DNA of 64,000 nucleotides, from the NCBI RefSeq assembly GCF_053078305.1, contig NZ_CP166879.1. One strand, written 5' to 3'. The notes beneath the pieces are model-generated. The model was not told where the DNA came from. It saw only the letters and a program-made list of their open reading frames with translations, and did no database searches. Each line of letters opens with the position of its first letter. The first letter of the stretch is position 1. Position numbers and translations under genes: made by a program. Positions 5,943 through 58,703 of this stretch are shown in pieces.

Positions 5943-6291
5943 TATTTTATCTCTGTTGAATTTGGTTAAGTCGGTGCAGACTCATCAACACAAGTACGGT
6001 TCGATGCAAACAGCTGTGACTGGCAATATGAAAGGAATGATGAATCAGTCAGGATGACAAAGTGCCGTCTGACCGGAGGGGACACAGGAAGATTCACGGA
6101 GGGACCAGCACTAGGGAACAGCGCCACATCCCGGGTGGTACTGCTTTGATGCGCCCGGTGACACAAAGCCCGGATTGTTCCAGACATCCTGAATCAAACG
6201 CCCCAGATCAGGGGCGTCGAAATATGCCTCTCTGGCCATTATATTCCGGCGTACAGGTAGCAGGTCAGAAGTGACAATGCGTCACCTAACG

Positions 6292-6858
6292 TTAAAAGTC
6301 ACTACACCCAAGATGACGTTCAACAGCACCATGCGATTCAATGTAAGCCCGGGCTGTCTGTTCCAGTACACCAGGCTCAGCGTTGTATGTGTTAGCTGCA
6401 TCAAATACCAACGACAACACTTCAGGATACACAACCAGATGTGTAATGGAGTTATCTTCACTCAATACTTTTCCCCACGCCTGCTCAATCAGATTTCTTA
6501 GAACCACCACCTCACGACTCTTACACCAGACATCGTTATTAAGTAGCAGCACCATAAGATAAGGAGTGGTATCGTTAGCCACAGCTTCCCTACTCCAGAG
6601 ATAATATAAAGGGGTGGGCTCAACAGATTTATCTTTACGTCTCTTGCACTGCAAATATTCAGAAATGAGTCTATGCAGTTCACCAGTAAAATCAGCCATC
6701 AGAGAGGGAATGGCCTTATTAATACCCTGCCCTGGTATTAATTTAAATTGTAATAATTTAATTTCAGGATGTGTAGCTGCAGCCCGATACAGAGTTGCAA
6801 GGACACACTTTTGCCAGAGGGCGTTACAGGAAAGCTTAACATTTGATTCTGTATACAT
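6292..6858 (-). CDS. YagK/YfjJ-family (inovirus Gp2-like, DUF3296) protein
   Basis: 188 aa; segments HPEIKLLQFKLIPG, LYYLWSREAV and YLMVLLLNNDVW resemble my recollection of E. coli YfjJ/YagK. Shorter than typical (about 280 aa), so possibly truncated. Confidence 0.5.
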   Translation of the reverse strand: MYTESNVKLSCNALWQKCVLATLYRAAATHPEIKLLQFKLIPGQGINKAIPSLMADFTGELHRLISEYLQCKRRKDKSVEPTPLYYLWSREAVANDTTPYLMVLLLNNDVWCKSREVVVLRNLIEQAWGKVLSEDNSITHLVVYPEVLSLVFDAANTYNAEPGVLEQTARAYIESHGAVERHLGCSDF

Positions 6859-7755: not shown

Positions 7756-8135
7756 TCTGCTCCCCCCTCCTCACTGAAGCGCCCGGTCTGGCAGTGTGTG
7801 CAGTACTGCTCCCCATAATAATCGTGGTGACATTGCCTGCAGTGCCAGCTGGCTTTACGTACTACGGGTAAGGCATCCGGGACGAATTGCTGCAGACGTT
7901 TAATCAACCGTATTTCTCTGCGTTCCGGCCTGACATAAGGGCACTCATGACCGTGCTCCGTCAGCCCTTCGTCAGCGTGTTCAAACCAGGGCCGTTCAGT
8001 GTCGTATTGCGGGTGGTATCTGAGTGCACTGCCGCAAAGGTGGCAGGTGTAGCTATCGTAAGGTGCAGTCTGTGCGGTACGGGCACCGGTCAGACGTCCG
8101 TTGCCATCAAGTGCGAGAAAAGATTTTGCGTACAT
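7752..8135 (-). CDS. Zinc-ribbon protein, paralog A (127 aa)
   Basis: Cys clusters CHLCGS and WHCRQCHH...CTHCQTG with WFEH motif; GAGGAA ribosome-binding site upstream of ATG at 8135. Confidence 0.55.
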   Translation of the reverse strand: MYAKSFLALDGNGRLTGARTAQTAPYDSYTCHLCGSALRYHPQYDTERPWFEHADEGLTEHGHECPYVRPERREIRLIKRLQQFVPDALPVVRKASWHCRQCHHDYYGEQYCTHCQTGRFSEEGGAE

Positions 8136-8507: not shown

Positions 8508-9107
8508 TTACACCAGAGCACATATCCCCGGCAGGGGGCTGTCCAGTCGTGGTCGACCACGGTTACTTTTTTCAGGAAGCCCGCTGCATTTCAGGATGAT
8601 GCCACATTCTTTCTGTTCCCGTTTGGCCAGGTAGCTGATGGCATAGCGTAAATCATTCACCGCTTTGTGATCTGAATAGTGAATGACGTGGTTAATGTTT
8701 ACCGGATAATTTTTATTAAACCGGCACCAGTGGTAGTAACCATTACCATCGGTAACCCGCCTCCAGATATCTCCCATCAATCTGGATACCAGATACGAAC
8801 TCCTGTGGATCTGACCGTTCAGATAGCCCACAAAATGAATGTGAAGCCCTTTACGTTCTGTATATTCCATCACCCAGGCATACCCGACCAGTTTCTCTCC
8901 CACCTCGTTAATCAGTTGCAGCATCTCCGCGCACATGGCGTACCTGCAGGCGCATCCGTAGCTGAATGTGTTTTTTCGGTAAGCAAAATCCATTCTGAAC
9001 GGTAACAGCTTCGAATAGACCCCGAATAATGAATCCAGATGCTGGTTAAAGTGTGTCAGGAGCTGGGGAGCCATTTCGTAAGCGGGATTGGTGTTATAAG
9101 TTTGCAT
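8508..9107 (-). CDS. YagK/YfjJ-family (inovirus Gp2-like) protein, second paralog
   Basis: 199 aa; motifs YAWVMEYTERKGLHIHFVGYLNG resemble the conserved core of the YfjJ/YagK family; GAGGAA ribosome-binding site before ATG at 9107. Confidence 0.5.
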   Translation of the reverse strand: MQTYNTNPAYEMAPQLLTHFNQHLDSLFGVYSKLLPFRMDFAYRKNTFSYGCACRYAMCAEMLQLINEVGEKLVGYAWVMEYTERKGLHIHFVGYLNGQIHRSSYLVSRLMGDIWRRVTDGNGYYHWCRFNKNYPVNINHVIHYSDHKAVNDLRYAISYLAKREQKECGIILKCSGLPEKSNRGRPRLDSPLPGICALV

Positions 9108-9338
9108 GTTTCTTCCTCGTGTTCTGTAACACAGGAAGAAGCGCTGGCGTAATTTTTGAAGAAAACGTTATCACACGAAGACGTGCAAGTTCACAACTCC
9201 CCGGGCGCCACAGAGAAAGTGGGAGCACACCCGGGTATCAGAACCATACAGAGAACGGCATACGTGACTGTCAATCACAGCGCAGATAATATCTGATATG
9301 ATGTCATTGTGACGACTGTACTTCATCAGAAACATTTA

Positions 9339-9551
9339 TCAGGTAACATATTTCCAGACTGAAGCGGGAACACGATCGTAAAGTTTGTTCATGGTCAGTT
9401 CTGCCAGCCGGTGATCGACCGCAGAGTTGAAGGCTTCCATCTCCGCTGGAGTAAGCTTATAACGCGTGTGGGAAATCACTTTTTCCAGTGTCTCCCGGGA
9501 TGAACAACGACGGAACTGATACAGCCAGTCTTCTTTGGTCTTAACTTCCAT
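9339..9551 (-). CDS. Hha/YmoA-family modulator paralog (70 aa)
   Basis: C-terminal [22 protein letters not shown] is near-identical to the Hha signature as I recall it; start ATG at 9551 chosen inside the longer 117 aa ORF. Confidence 0.75.
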   Translation of the reverse strand: [70 protein letters not shown]

Positions 9552-9699
9552 TATCCTCTCGTTATTTTGTGCTGTGATTAACGTTAACATAATACCGTCA
9601 GAATAACGTATTCTGACGTCATCCCGGAAGTCTTTCCACTTTCCTGTCTCTCCGGTAATAAAACATTTTAAATGCTGAAGGCATAACGCCATAACCAGA

Positions 9700-10190
9700 T
9701 ATTACAAGTAACGTGGCGTTACACGTGTTAATGCATTACAGAAGTAACAGAGACAATCAGATAGTAAACAACACTCCGGAAGACTGTTTAATGGCATAGG
9801 TATACTTTTTACGATCACAATATTATATCACTACCAAAATTCATCAGGTGAACTGCAAAAGCAAAACATTAACAGTTCTCCCTCAACCACCGTTATCCAC
9901 ACTATTGACACTGACGATTCATACTCTTATTTAGCCAGAATAGCCTCCACACAACAGGCATTACTTAACAAAGTACATTACAGTCAGTGTGTGTACATGA
10001 CAGATTTATATTCAGGTGTTACGAGATTACATTACAGCAGAGAGAGTTAAGGACAGAGTTACAAGTACTACTACAGAGAATATCTCTGTACAGATACTTC
10101 TATGAGCATATCTTTATGAGAGATCCGTCTACAGGATTGGGTTACAAGGTGGAATTACAGAATTACAGGGTTCATTTACATAACCATACT
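9700..10190. repeat. AT-rich divergent intergenic region with about ten degenerate TTACA(G/A) repeats
   Basis: ATTACAG at about 9734, 9975, 10028, 10153, 10161; GTTACAAG at 10057 and 10141; related copies at 9710 and 9719; lies between the minus-strand block ending at hha and the plus-strand block starting at 10503. Confidence 0.6.
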
Positions 10191-10502
10191 TCTATAAATA
10201 ATACTAATTAACCTTAATTATTTTTTAATAGTACATGAACTGCCTGTAGCTGTAACGACAAATCACCCAAAATGAAAAATACTGGTTATCACGGTTCAGA
10301 GAACTCGTATAAGTACCTCCCCCCTGAGCAATGCTTCATTTTCTGTGGTTCTATGTGATAGAGTTATGCTGAGTACAGTGGCAGTAACCCTGCTTTCCAC
10401 CACTCAATGACAAAACACACAAAAAATTAATTATATGAATTAACAGTGTTTTTTATGGAATGTTATGCATATCAACCAATATGATTAACAGAAAACTTCA
10501 TC

Positions 10503-11294
10503 ATGACAACACGTATAACTTTCAATATGACCAGTGATGAGACGCTGCGAATTGTGGATGAGTACTGTCATACCCACAAACTTTCGCGCTCTAAGGTAAT
10601 CGACGCATTACTCAGCGCCACAGCACCTGTCCTTAACGATATTAACTGTTATTATCAACTTGCAGGCAAACTGCAGTCACGCTTATTAAATGGAGTGTAT
10701 CAACGGGATCTTCCTCACAAACGCAATGTCGTCAGTGCAGAGAAGTATTGTCTGGAAATCTGGGAAAACAAACTTTTCACCAAAAGAATCCTGGAGTTTG
10801 ACAGTTCAAATGGTGTTCTATACGCGCTGAAACATAAAAGACACTATCGCCGGGATAAGATGATTGGACGGGTTGAAAGCCGGCGTATCAAAGACATTTG
10901 CGAATACCAGATGCAACTGTCCGGGGAGAAGGCAAAATATGCCTGTTTTATTTATATTGAAAGAACAATATACAATCACGATAATCCATCCGGTGAAACA
11001 CCTGTAAAAGCGGCTGTTGGTAATGCAGTCATCCTGCTGGCAAAAGACGTGATATATGACGAGTACTTTTTTGATCTGCGGCAGTCATTTTTCGTGAGCG
11101 TTAAAGATTTGATGGCCTCTGGCGCAAAAGGTATTCCGGAGACACAGAAATATCCGGACGTTTATTGCTGGATCCCGCTTTTCTCCATAAATTCCGGCGT
11201 GGTCATTACCCCGGTCTATAAAATTGATCCCCGGAAACCCGTAACGGTAAAAAAACCGGATCAGATCACTGTTGTTTGTAATTACAGAGAATAA
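10503..11294 (+). CDS. Hypothetical protein with N-terminal ribbon-helix-helix-like domain (263 aa)
   Basis: N-terminus TRITFNMTSDETLRIVDEYCHTHKLSRSKVIDALL has a beta-strand plus two-helix RHH pattern; the remaining 220 aa is unrecognised. Confidence 0.5.
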   Translation: MTTRITFNMTSDETLRIVDEYCHTHKLSRSKVIDALLSATAPVLNDINCYYQLAGKLQSRLLNGVYQRDLPHKRNVVSAEKYCLEIWENKLFTKRILEFDSSNGVLYALKHKRHYRRDKMIGRVESRRIKDICEYQMQLSGEKAKYACFIYIERTIYNHDNPSGETPVKAAVGNAVILLAKDVIYDEYFFDLRQSFFVSVKDLMASGAKGIPETQKYPDVYCWIPLFSINSGVVITPVYKIDPRKPVTVKKPDQITVVCNYRE

Positions 11295-11676
11295 TTTCAG
11301 TCTTCTCCGTTCACCGCAACAGTGTTTACCTCTGCTTTATCTTCCTTTCAGTAAATACAAACCACAGCTCTGGCAGGTACAGGGCGTGGTTTATCTCCGA
11401 TACTCCCCTGCGCAGTAATAATCATCACTGAAAATACTGATTCCGTCACGGCAAAACGCCATCCCATATTCCGGCAACACAAAATCATCTTCCGTTTATA
11501 CCGGCTTCACTGACAAAACAGACAACCTGTATTGCCTGTACACAACAGTTTCTCTCCTGGCAGGAATATTCCTCAACTTTTTTACGTTTCTCCCCGGTTG
11601 TTATGCCGGTGAAGGTGGTGCGTCGTTTTCATCACCAACGCCGGTTGAGATTAACAACATCCGGAGGAACATTTTC

Positions 11677-11883
11677 ATGAAGACCCCAGTTTCGCTGATG
11701 GATGACCAGATGGTCGACATGGCGTTTATCACTCAACTGACCGGCTTAACCGATAAGTGGTTTTATAAGCTCATCAAAGATGGTGCCTTTCCGGCCCCCA
11801 TCAAACTCGGCCGCAGCTCCCGATGGCTGAAAAGTGAAGTGGAAGCCTGGTTGCAGGCGCGTATTGCACAATCCCGTCCGTAA
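11677..11883 (+). CDS. alpA: AlpA-family prophage transcriptional regulator
   Basis: 68 aa; helix-turn-helix segment FITQLTGLTDKWFYKLIKDGAFPAPIKLGRSSRWLKSEVEAWL typical of AlpA; GGAGG ribosome-binding site at 11664. Confidence 0.8.
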   Translation: MKTPVSLMDDQMVDMAFITQLTGLTDKWFYKLIKDGAFPAPIKLGRSSRWLKSEVEAWLQARIAQSRP

Positions 11884-11968
11884 TTACTGACCGTTATCCG
11901 TTCAACCGCAGCGAATACACTATCCGGCCTCCGGAGGCATTCTGCTGCGTGCTAAAGGAGAGAATATT

Positions 11969-12541
11969 ATGCAAAAACTTGAAAACCGGTGTGATCTGCT
12001 GCTAATTCAGCATCAGAAATGGATGGCAAGTGTAACCCGGTTTATTGTCGCTCATGGAATGGGCTCTCCGCATCTTCATGGTTATCACCGCCTGACCCTG
12101 GCTCACTTTTTTCTACCGGAAAAAGGCACCATCATCTCAGTGGCACCACAGGGACTCTATCAGGTCGTCAACCCGGGAACGCCACCGTTCATTCCTGCCA
12201 TTCAGGAAGGGTTAATGACCAGCATTCAGACCCATGAAATCATGCTGCTTACGCATTTTAATCTGGGCGGCGTTTTACTCAGTGAGCTACATCGTCTGGG
12301 CGAAAGCCGGCTGGCAAACAGGCTGAACAGTCTGCTCCGGCGTTTCGAAGATCGCGATCTCTACCACACGCTGATATGGCTGTGCTGGTATGATCTGATG
12401 TGTGCCCACTCCATGCAGCCCTGGACTGAAGAGTTAAAGCATAAATCACACACAGAGCTTGAAAGCTGGGCTGTGGCGCGCAAACGGGAAAAGCGCGAGC
12501 TTGAACTGATGATTGACGAGTATCTGTTATACGCCTGTTGA
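11969..12541 (+). CDS. Hypothetical protein (190 aa)
   Basis: ORF with AAAGGAG ribosome-binding site immediately downstream of alpA; no family recognised. Confidence 0.45.
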   Translation: MQKLENRCDLLLIQHQKWMASVTRFIVAHGMGSPHLHGYHRLTLAHFFLPEKGTIISVAPQGLYQVVNPGTPPFIPAIQEGLMTSIQTHEIMLLTHFNLGGVLLSELHRLGESRLANRLNSLLRRFEDRDLYHTLIWLCWYDLMCAHSMQPWTEELKHKSHTELESWAVARKREKRELELMIDEYLLYAC

Positions 12542-14121
12542 TTCATAACGCTCCCGGGATTCCTTCCTCATCGTTGCACACAACCGGACGGCTATCTGTG
12601 GCAGTCCGCCAAATGACCCTCGCCGCATTTCGTTCTGCTGAAAACGGTACGTAGCCAGTGATACCGGAATTTCCGGAGAGGGTCGCAGGTATATTGCTTC
12701 TGTGCAATTGATGCTTATTTACATTGGATGTGGTTATTTCTGCATCCAATGCTATCGGAAAGAGATCAACCAGCAAATGGTTCCTCAAATCGTATTGATA
12801 TTTACCCGGTGCATTGAGCACCTCCATCTGACACTCCGTTCCCGCATCAAACGGCTGAACCGGAAAACGATTTGCTTTTCACGCTCCGTGGAAATTCACG
12901 AAAAAGTTATTGGGTCATTCATCGAAAAACACATGTTCTGCTGACTGGAGCCATCACCCGGAAATATACGTCAACTGAACAATAACGATTTTTTCTTTAT
13001 GGGATCCCATACACTTTCCCATACCCCTCTGAAAATCAGTCATCAACTCACCAACACATCTTCTGAAATCTGTATTAAACTTATTGCTTAAATAGATGAT
13101 ATAACACATCTTCCATTGCACGGAATCAGCGAAAACTGTCATTCTGGCAATCTTAACAAGATCATTTATCGGTTAATTTTATCAGTAAACAATGGAATAT
13201 CACACTGATAAAATGAACATTCAGGGTAAGATGATAAAATTCACATAAAAAATGCTGAAGATTATTTATTTCATGCAGATAAACGATAAAATACAAGAGA
13301 GTATATTTTTCAGTGTAAGAGTCAATCGTTCATCTCCACTGACGATCACGGTCAGCACATAAACAAAGTGAGTCCTCCTGCTTAGTCATTGCGTATCAGA
13401 AACTAAAAAACAAAAGATTCTGTAAACAACGTGACATTTTTTATGACATTTCCCGAATACAGATATATCAACAAACAGTAGTCAGCGTTGAATTAATAAG
13501 TTTTACAGGGCTATACGTATCTTATAAAACCACTCAACGACCATCATCACCTGACTATTTAGCGGGAGTATCATCTGTATAAATCCCTAAATAATAACAC
13601 CTGTTATTAAAATAAGAATGCTGTCAGCAGTAAATTATTAACATAACACCTGTCCACTCTATCTGTTCTTCTAACTCAACCGGCATCGAAAATATTGCCT
13701 GATTAGTGCATCATAGCCTTCTTTTTTCTTTCCCGACCATCAAAACAAATACAACATTTACAACCACACAATAAAACAAAACTAAAACATAAGATTAACA
13801 ACACCAATCAACAGGAAAACACTGAATATTGAGGTGCCCTGTAACCTGGAGAGCGCATACGGCGCATGTGATCAACACAGCCCATTCTTTTCTGTCATCC
13901 CCCAAATGCAGAACAAACAAGCATAACCTAATGAATATAAAATAAAATATTATTTTTCACCATCATAAAAACATCAATGTATCTTTATATAAAAACACTG
14001 ACAACATGACATAAACATTTAAAAACATAAACAAATCACAACAAAAACATTTGATAATCACTTAGTGACAAAATAAAATTGAGACGATTTTGTTATAAGA
14101 GAGGCGCCATGGAGTGAGATA

Positions 14122-41966: not shown

Positions 41967-44408
41967 TCACTCTGCCACTTTTTTCTTCGCCGCACGCTTC
42001 GCTTTGGTCGCTGCAGCTATTTTCTGCGTTTTCGCCGATGGCTTTTTCGCTTTTCTCGCGTCTTTCTTCGCTGCTTTCGGCTTCGTTTTTTTCTCACCGC
42101 GGAAGGCGCTGTCTGGCTCAAAGTTTACCTTTTTACCGACCTGACGACGCTTGCCGCCTTTTTTACCTGTATCGCCTTTTTTCGCTTTCTCGCGCGCCGT
42201 TTTACCGACGTTGCGCGGTGCGCGTTCGCTGGAGATCAGGCTAAAGTCGATTTTGCGCTCGTCCATATTAACCGCTTCGACGCGAACTTCCACGCGATCG
42301 CCCAGACGATAAGTCTGGCCGCTGGATTCACCCATCAGGCGTTGCCCTACCTGGTCAAAGCGATAGTAGTCATTGTCCAGCGAAGAGACATGGACCAGAC
42401 CATCAATGAATAAGTCGTCCAGACGGACAAAGAATCCAAAGCCAGTGACGCTGGAAATTACGCCTTTAAAGACGTTACCTACCTGGTCGAGCATAAAGTC
42501 ACACTTCAGCCAGTCAGCCACATCGCGCGTTGCTTCGTCGGCACGACGTTCTGCCATCGAACAGTGCTGACCCAGTTGCAGCATCTCTTCCATCGAATAA
42601 TGGTAGCCGCCGGTTTCAGTGGTGTTACCCTGATGCCCCTGCTCTTTCGCCAGCAGATATTTAATGGCGCGGTGCAGCGTCAGGTCTGGATAACGACGAA
42701 TCGGCGAAGTAAAGTGCGCATAGGACTGCAATGCCAGGCCAAAGTGACCACGGTTTTCTGGATCGTAAATCGCCTGTTTCATCGAGCGCAGCAGCATGGT
42801 TTGCAGCATTTCTGCATCAGGACGATCGGCAACCGACTCCAGCAGCTCCGCGTAGTCACGCGGTTCCGGCTTGTTACCGCCCGGCAGTTCCAGCCCCAGC
42901 TCCGCCAGCACTGAACGGAAAGAGGTAATCGCTTCGGTGCTCGGCTTGTCGTGAATACGGAACAGTGCCGGTTCTTTCGCTTTCTCAACGAAACGCGCCG
43001 CCGAGATATTCGCCAGAATCATGCACTCTTCAATTAACTTGTGCGCGTCGTTACGCTGAGTCTGTTCGATACGCTCAATACGGCGTTCAGCGTTGAAAAT
43101 GAACTTCGCTTCTTCGCTCTCAAATGAGATCCCACCGCGTTCTTCACGGGCTTTATCCAGCACTTTATAGAGGTTATGCAACTCCTCGAGATGCTTAACC
43201 AGCGGGGCGTACTGCTCGCACAGATCCTGATCGCCCTGCAGAATATGCCAGACTTTGGTGTAGGTCAGACGCGCGTGAGAGCTCATCACCGCTTCGTAGA
43301 ATTTGTAGCCAGTCAGGCGGCCTTTCGACGAAACCGTCATCTCGCACACCATACACAGGCGGTCTACCTGCGGATTGAGCGAGCACAGACCGTTAGAGAG
43401 CACTTCCGGCAGCATCGGGATAACCTGCGAAGGGAAGTACACCGACGTACCACGGTTACGCGCTTCTCTGTCCAGCGGCGTTGGCGGACGCACATAGTAG
43501 CTGACGTCGGCAATCGCGACCCATAAACGCCAGCCGCCGCCGCGTTTTTTCTCGCAGTAAACTGCATCGTCAAAGTCACGGGCGTCTTCGCCATCAATGG
43601 TGACCAGCGGTAAATCGCGCAGATCAACACGGCCCGCTTTTGCTTCTTCCGGCACTTCTTCTTTCAGCCCGGCAACCTGTTGCTCAACAGCCTGCGGCCA
43701 GATGTACGGAATTTCATGGGTACGCAGAGCGATATCAACCGCCATGCCGGTGCCCATATTATCGCCAAGGACTTCGACGATTTTACCCACCGCTTTGGTG
43801 CGGCGAGTCGGACGCTGAGTCAGTTCGACTACGACCACAAAGCCCATCCGCGCGCCCATGATCTGATCGGGCGGGATTAAGATATCGAAGCTCAGACGGC
43901 TGTCGTCAGGAACCACAAAGCCGACGCCCGCTTCGGTAAAGTAGCGACCAACAATCTGGCTGGTTTTTGGCACCAGTACGCGGACAATACGCGCTTCACG
44001 ACGACCTTTACGGTCAGCACCCAGCGGCTGAGCCAGCACCTGATCGCCATGAATGCAGGTTTTCATCTGCTCGCTGGAGAGATACAAATCATCTTTACGC
44101 CCTTCAACCCGCAGAAAGCCGTAGCCATCACGGTGGCCAATAACGGTACCTTTCACCAGGTCGAGGCGTTCCGGCAGCGCATAGCACTGACGACGAGTAA
44201 AGACCAGTTGACCATCGCGCTCCATCGCGCGCAGGCGGCGACGCAGGCCTTCAAGCTGCTCTTCGCCTTCAATGTGCAGTTCTACCGCCAGCTCATCACG
44301 GCTGGCCGGTTTTTCACGTTTGGTTAAATGTTCGAGGATAAATTCCCGACTAGGGATGGGATTCGCGTATTTTTCAGCTTCGCGTTCCTGGAAAGGATCT
44401 TGTGACAT
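41967..44408 (-). CDS. rnr: Ribonuclease R
   Basis: 813 aa from [14 protein letters not shown] with RNB domain and Lys-rich C-terminal tail. Confidence 0.95.
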
Positions 44409-58404: not shown

Positions 58405-58480
<76 letters not shown>

Positions 58481-58515
58481 TTGGGTGGTCTGTGCCTTAC
58501 AGCACTTTCAAATTT

Positions 58516-58591
<76 letters not shown>

Positions 58592-58627
58592 TTGGGTGGT
58601 CTGTGCTTTGCAGCACTTTTCAAATTT

Positions 58628-58703
<76 letters not shown>

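Follow-up and report, generated by a model that had tools for sequence, protein, structure and literature searches.

The gene and its island neighbourhood

The window, i.e., the whole 64-kb stretch of contig NZ_CP166879.1 that was analysed, holds on its plus strand, at 10503..11294, a gene of the YagM family (UCP007319 / PF27701). The open reading frame encodes 263 amino acids plus the stop codon, and its translation opens with MTTRITFNMTSDETLRIVDEYCHTHKLSRSKVIDALL, as quoted in the first-pass annotation of this DNA. RefSeq lists the protein as WP_001375313.1, under the product name "hypothetical protein". This entry, together with relatives down to ~20% identity and a dN/dS ratio of 0.24, supports the reading of this frame as a real gene. 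The ratio was obtained against the allele of locus L014, which is 93–95% identical, and is 0.20 for residues 79–263 in the same comparison; therefore, both parts of the protein are under purifying selection. L014 (JAIJJM010000108.1), a contig of 7.2 kb assigned to a Collinsella MAG, carries this allele and the same upstream region, and is probably a mis-binned enterobacterial contig. The 2.1-kb region around the gene matches an E. coli chromosome with 100% identity, and of 5426 complete E. coli genomes, 736 contain at least 80% of it.

The gene sits in an island of the CP4-6/CP4-57 type. Upstream, beyond an intergenic region of 810 bp, the minus strand encodes two zinc-ribbon proteins, a member of the YagK/YfjJ family (8508..9107), and an Hha-like protein (9339..9692). 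Downstream, after a gap of 383 bp, the plus strand carries an alpA-like gene, a 190-aa ORF, and genes for a GTPase, Ag43, IrmA, a DUF932 protein, an antirestriction protein, a RadC-like protein, and CbeA/CbtA. The alpA-like gene (11677..11883, +) encodes 68 residues with an excisionase/AlpA-type HTH (TIGR01764 excisionase domain, E 1.6e-4). Neither Pfam nor NCBIfam recognises the 190-aa protein that follows it (11969..12541, +), whose full-length identity to its counterpart behind alpA in L002 of Citrobacter (6043–6618) is 37%. Such a protein always follows alpA in these loci, and its gene is a further uncharacterised member of the core of the module.

The YagK/YfjJ-family gene (8508..9107, −) exhibits Rep-like features, with matches to Pfam YagK_YfjJ_C (E 1.8e-4) and REP_ORF2-G2P (E 2.1e-4), and its product is 38% identical to the neighbouring protein in L002. 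On direct reading, its translation also contains the motifs H-I-H and Y-x-x-x-Y, as are typical of rolling-circle initiators of the HUH class; with the REP_ORF2-G2P match, they suggest that CP4-type islands may code for an HUH protein that initiates rolling-circle replication or acts as a relaxase. The Hha-like ORF comprises 117 residues, with similarity to Hha in residues 51–116 only, and the RefSeq annotation has an hha of 70 aa at the corresponding position. Strain GPEC1176 holds an IS2 between the Hha-like and YfjJ-like genes, which is missing from the window. Elsewhere in the window, three tandem tRNA-Gly(GCC) genes lie at 58405–58703 on the minus strand.

This setting is not restricted to close relatives. 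Loci were fetched for members with 55%, 46%, 42%, 33%, 31%, 23%, and 21% identity, and in nearly all of them, including most loci of distant members, the family gene lies beside AlpA-family and YagK/YfjJ-family genes, as it does in the window. A Phage_AlpA gene directly adjoins it in L002–4, L006–7, L009–12, L019, and L020. Three arrangements are observed. The order alpA, yagM, (yagL), yagK is found in L006, L007, L009, and K-12 CP4-6, with a similar layout in L020, where, however, the yagK/yfjJ-type gene precedes yagM. A second arrangement, in which yagM is divergent from a yfjJ-alpA-190aa operon, is found in L002–4, L010–11, L015–18, and L019; in the window, yagM is followed by alpA and then by the 190-aa gene. 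The island of L009 is integrated beside smpB, like CP4-57.

Homologues are also found on plasmids. L023 (NZ_CP114799.1) is a complete Providencia plasmid of 4136 bp, which carries only a YagM-like gene and two others, encoding a YagL-like serine recombinase and a 381-aa protein without a family match. Another homologue is located in a Rep3 plasmid-like contig. Approximately 300 bp upstream of the yagM-like gene of L023 are nearly identical to a stretch of the metagenome contig L005 (2260–2600), which carries a different family member.

Family membership and domain architecture

The first-pass annotation had described the product as an orphan protein, formed by the fusion of a ribbon-helix-helix (RHH) domain to a large unrecognised domain. 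The first of these descriptions does not hold. Relatives were found in 23 clusters of a set of 5.8 billion sequences, all bearing the precomputed Pfam label PF27701 (UCP007319), and a search of 1.84 billion proteins yielded 44 representative clusters; the copy of Pfam-A that was searched had no PF27701 entry. Full-length relatives have 245–288 residues and match end to end, down to ~20% identity. A tblastn search against plasmids matched yagM on F-prime plasmids with 96% coverage. YagM of E. coli K-12 (b0279, CP4-6) aligns to residues 5–257 of the window protein (BLASTP E 5e-15, 25% identity), and the comparison of the family profile with K-12 YagM gave an hhalign probability of 100% (E 9.4e-44, 246 columns). 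The protein is, thus, a YagM-family member by an end-to-end sequence-profile match. Searches with the single protein in Pfam-A, NCBIfam, PHROGs, PADLOC, and PDB sequences returned weak RHH hints at most, and a set of 50,697 phage records yielded no homologue.

The idea of a fusion fares no better, as all full-length relatives share this two-part organisation and no standalone family of the C-terminal domain was found. Therefore, the RHH-plus-domain build is ancestral to the YagM family, with no recent fusion. The match to a family from end to end does not amount to a match to a characterised one, and this part of the earlier proposal stands: a 2024 survey of the y-ome places YagM among the uncharacterised genes of CP4-6 (PMC11551758), and its other appearances in the literature are in screens only.

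K-12 YagM shares with the window protein the two-domain build and the type of island, with int, a gene in the alpA position, yagL, and yagK as neighbours. Unlike the window protein, to which it is ~25% identical, it has the β-strand HSVTF and lacks the TTATGCA operator described below. As annotated (L013, 31946–32800), it starts ~35 residues ahead of the point at which all other members begin (M-x-x-R-I-T-F), which reflects either a start codon annotated too far upstream or a lineage-specific extension. Between ykgV and yagM, K-12 carries the palindrome TCTGTAATAAATTACAGA and a terminator-like hairpin (GTTGCCCC...GGGGCAAC). In CP4-57, the gene for YfjH adjoins alpA and is divergent from it. 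Foldseek matches to enterobacterial proteins of 314–333 residues hinted at YfjH as a further relative, but BLASTP gave an E of 17 and hhalign probabilities of 0.1–0.2%, both with the single sequence and with a 10-sequence profile, and the two are considered unrelated.

The architecture of the protein was derived from AF2 models. With eight close sequences the prediction was unusable (pLDDT 38), whereas 28 diverse family members, including distant relatives from the search of 1.84 billion proteins, raised the pLDDT to 83.4. In this model, residues 1–11 are extended and are followed by a helix (12–25), a turn, a long helix (29–62), a linker, and a domain spanning residues 79–263. The RHH DNA-binding domain corresponds to residues 1–45 (10503..10637, +), with the strand T3-RITFN-M9, helix 12–25, the turn S28-R29-S30, and the start of helix 2. 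The extension of helix 2 to residue 62 and the low-confidence linker (63–78; pLDDT <50 at 69–76) occupy 10638..10736 (+), and the family-specific α/β domain (residues 79–263; pLDDT mostly 80–95) occupies 10737..11291 (+).

As expected for an RHH protein, an N-terminal β-strand is followed by two helices, with a turn between them that is conserved in the family (S28 in 24 of 25 members, R29 in 21 of 25, S30 in 26 of 26). In RHH proteins, a turn of the G-x-S/T/N type at this place caps helix 2 and touches the phosphate backbone. The turn of the family aligns with "LSKS" of CopG, and its glycine is usually replaced. The family profile aligns in register with residues 1–38 of CopG (E 0.11), and in fold searches the N-terminal 77 residues come closest to ParD-type antitoxins, with TraM and MobC also among the matches, to the RHH part only. 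In the AF2 monomer, residues 1–11 are extended and unpaired. The model, these fold matches, and the CopG alignment agree with the earlier assignment of a CopG/Arc-type RHH fold, and the N-terminal 45 residues are shown in this way to be an RHH module, for which DNA binding is predicted. The pairing of two strands into an antiparallel ribbon and sequence-specific binding, both typical of the superfamily, gain indirect support from the conserved inverted repeat described below and from its association with the RITF[N/S] strand.

The model likewise shows the remainder as a compact α/β domain specific to the YagM family. Residues 79–263 matched nothing in Pfam-A, NCBIfam, PHROG, PADLOC, or PDB sequences, and three fold searches revealed no relative outside the family; in the search of AFDB50 with Foldseek, only family members were recovered (from Enterobacterales and Aeromonas), either unnamed or labelled "CopG family". 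Consequently, the description of this domain as unrecognised is upheld by both structure prediction and profile and fold searches. Its conserved positions are E80, W87, G122, E125, I150-Y151, R154, G173, F190-D191, D202, G207, C222-W223-x-P225, and P237-V238, among which no catalytic or ligand-binding signature was recognised.

A candidate operator ahead of the gene

Upstream of the gene lies an imperfect inverted repeat, TTATGCA-N12-TGATTAA (10463..10488, +), which ends 14 bp before the ATG and is a candidate operator. With up to one mismatch tolerated, this is its sole occurrence in the 64-kb window (0.05 expected). In 12 fetched loci, the pattern TTATGCA-N12-TG[A/C][A/T]TAA occurs exactly once per locus, always just 5′ of the family gene, in a count made over the very loci from which the motif was derived. 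With a spacer of N12 or N13, the motif is found in eight lineages (the window, L014, L002, L015, L012, the Providencia plasmid L023, L010, and L021), ending 5–14 bp before the ATG. The proteins of these lineages fall to ~21% identity and their flanks do not align; in an alignment of seven upstream regions, the invariant columns are both half-sites and the ATG only. The right half-site appears as TGATTAA, TGCATAA, TGCTTAA, or TGAATAA, without compensating change in the left one, which argues for a protein site over an RNA stem.

The presence of the motif accompanies the sequence of the N-terminal β-strand. All eight motif-bearing lineages share the strand RITF[N/S], and L022, with the strand RITFNA, holds the variant TTAATCA-N12-AGATTAA. 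The motif is missing from five lineages with the strands PTSIN, RINVN, AVTFS, RITFQ, and RITIT, two of which (L005 and L009) have different palindromes at the same position. Nevertheless, the lineages with the motif are related, and the correlation between strand and operator is, therefore, not a set of independent events. Furthermore, genes without the motif often lie behind another gene or IS1 (L006, L009, L019, L020), and its absence there may reflect their position in an operon and not a changed specificity.

The promoters of alpA and yfjJ hold operator-like sites at two mismatches only, with no good second site. As each locus has a single good site, there is no support for a control of the island that goes beyond autoregulation. 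The promoter of the 10503–11294 gene itself could not be placed with confidence. A match to the relaxed pattern with an 11-bp spacer at 43174–43198 (+) lies inside a minus-strand ORF of 827 residues, and was taken as a chance occurrence and not as a second operator.

The first-pass annotation had also named an array of TTACA repeats as a possible target of the N-terminal domain. The window contains eight same-strand copies of TTACA/TTACAG at 9978–10180 (+), and this local enrichment is real, since shuffled sequences give at most four TTACA copies per 250 bp. Three further copies, at 9702, 9719, and 9736, lie just upstream of the Hha-like gene with an exact spacing of 17 bp. However, the array is absent upstream of most other family loci, with the exception of L010, which has a short homologous stretch (7770–7840, including ATAATACTAATTAACCTTAA). 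As the array does not travel with the family, whereas the proximal inverted repeat is conserved, it is considered an unlikely operator or conserved target of the window protein, and was rejected as such. A hairpin in the array region scored no better than those in shuffled sequences (z −1.46), and no RNA family of Rfam was detected in 9000–12600.

Proposed role and comparison with known systems

The preferred reading, to which a probability of roughly 0.55 is given, is that the window protein acts as an autoregulating RHH repressor of the alpA/rep module of the island, with a C-terminal domain that oligomerises or senses a partner. In broader terms, the best explanation for the YagM-family protein is that of a core component of the CP4-6/CP4-57-type integrative islands of Enterobacterales. 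Two subunits would pair their N-terminal strands into an RHH β-ribbon, with R4, T6, and N8 facing the DNA, and each TGCA-centred half-site of TTATGCA-N12-TGATTAA would take one dimer. The half-sites lie 19 bp apart, so that the two dimers must be held together, and the long helix and the C-terminal domain are the most likely to bridge them. Occupancy over the promoter and ribosome-binding region would then repress the synthesis of the protein itself, and, through read-through or an operon arrangement, would also be expected to repress the adjacent alpA/rep genes. More speculatively, a signal or a partner protein acting at the C-terminal domain might release this repression, and with such a release YagM could serve as a quiescence switch of CP4-type islands. 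The earlier suggestion of a regulator with a sensor domain is plausible as a hypothesis.

Two genetic studies of K-12 bear on this reading. Transposon data identified yagM as one of six genes "important for fitness" in regions that can be deleted wholesale, and its disruption was reported as costly and not beneficial (bioRxiv 10.1101/038851), and clones overexpressing yagM were recovered alive in screens for resistance to H2O2 and HOCl (PMC8228696). Both the importance for fitness and the tolerated overexpression fit a role that is repressor-like and not toxic.

An alternative that is considered unlikely, although it has several observations in its favour, is that of an accessory factor in replication or transfer, in which the RHH protein would act with the YagK/YfjJ protein, an HUH-type Rep- or relaxase-like protein, at an ori or oriT of the excised island, and the C-terminal domain would serve to bring in Rep or a coupling partner. 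Such partnerships are known for CopG with RepB on pMV158, and for TraY, TraM, and TrwA with relaxases. In line with them, the YagK/YfjJ neighbour holds the REP_ORF2-G2P matches and the H-U-H and Y-x-x-x-Y motifs, several loci have the order yagM-(yagL)-yagK on one strand, like copG-repB, and TraM and MobC are among the fold matches of the N-terminus. Homologues on the 4.1-kb Providencia plasmid and the Rep3 plasmid-like contig, as well as genes of the plasmid leading-region type in the island (antirestriction, DUF932, RadC), point in the same direction. However, the sole conserved site lies at the start of the gene itself and not beside the rep-like gene, which in the window is on the other strand with the hha-like gene in between. 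The TTACA array near that gene is not conserved across the family loci, the nearby hairpin scores no better than shuffled sequences, and no conjugation genes lie nearby; neither an origin or oriT nor genes for a coupling protein or secretion were identified.

The autorepressor reading could be extended further, to a C-terminal domain that is a new sensor for a protein of a helper phage or conjugative plasmid, and to a YagM family of Stl-like master repressors silencing their islands. The arrival of the helper would then set off excision, driven by AlpA, and rolling-circle replication or transfer, driven by YagK/YfjJ. This extension is quite improbable, but, if true, it would explain how very common "cryptic prophages" of E. 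coli move.

The first-pass annotation had also raised the possibility of a self-regulating effector. Its self-regulating half gains indirect support from the conserved inverted repeat 5′ of the start codon, and its effector half does not, as no defence-system matches were obtained. A toxic or defence effector under its own control, made of an antitoxin-like RHH domain fused to a toxin or abortive-infection domain, is very unlikely. The ParD-type antitoxin folds matched best by the N-terminal 77 residues, the abundance of toxin–antitoxin and defence genes in CP4-type islands, and the conserved acidic and basic positions of the C-terminal domain (E80, E125, R154, D191, and D202) would be consistent with it. 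However, PADLOC gave no match, residues 79–263 have no toxin-like or nuclease-like fold match, and the K-12 findings, with surviving overexpression clones selected in a screen and a costly disruption, speak against it. Also very unlikely is a centromere-binding protein of a partition system, similar to ParG or omega (both autoregulating RHH proteins), or an accessory of the YagL serine recombinase in resolution or inversion. A serine recombinase gene is the next one downstream in K-12 CP4-6, in L009, and on the Providencia plasmid, with another at a short distance in L022, and a ParA-like ATPase is encoded upstream in L021. However, the linkage to such genes is not consistent, as the window and most loci have no adjacent recombinase or ParA gene, and the candidate operator is a single one with two half-sites, not the repeat array typical of centromeres.

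The window protein belongs to an already known but uncharacterised family, and its identification is an upgrade of annotation and not the description of a new kind of system. What the analysis adds is the link to K-12 YagM, the model of an RHH domain with a C-terminal fold lacking relatives, the alpA/Rep-like context, and the candidate operator. Few accessory elements of E. coli and its relatives are as widespread as CP4-6/CP4-57-type islands, which carry adhesins, toxin–antitoxin pairs, and phage-defence genes. Their regulatory core of alpA, yagK/yfjJ, yagM, and partners is largely uncharacterised, with yagM, yagK, and yfjJ in the "y-ome". The YagM identity, the candidate operator, and the C-terminal fold, unlike any known one, make a testable regulator of an anonymous ORF, and offer a handle on how CP4-type islands stay silent or mobilise.

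Among known systems, CopG of pMV158 (PDB 1b01/2cpg) is an autorepressor with an RHH fold, and its gene precedes one for an HUH Rep, in an order that resembles yagM-yagK. However, CopG has 45 residues and no further domain, its profile match reaches only an E of 0.11, and its operator is a 13-bp pseudosymmetric element, in contrast to the two half-sites 19 bp apart of the YagM-type candidate. ParD-type antitoxins (PDB 5ceg_A, 6xrw_D) have ~80 residues, compared to 263 in the window protein, with 6–12% identity, and after the helix they bear a toxin-wrapping tail, where YagM-family proteins have a folded domain and no partner toxin gene. The window gene also differs from the typical type II toxin–antitoxin layout, in which a small antitoxin of ~70–100 residues shares an operon with its toxin, given its 263 residues and the lack of an adjacent small toxin ORF. 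NikR, Mnt, TraM, and TrwA are also comparable, as RHH regulators with an added C-terminal domain. The ACT-like metal-binding tetramerisation domain that defines the NikR type is not found in the window protein. The analogy with staphylococcal Stl is one of organisation only: Stl has a helix-turn-helix and not an RHH domain, no homology exists, and an inducer is known for no YagM-type protein. Nevertheless, Stl also combines a DNA-binding N-terminus with a large partner-sensing C-terminus, and its gene is divergent from the xis/rep operon of its island, resembling the arrangement of loci L002, L010, and L015.
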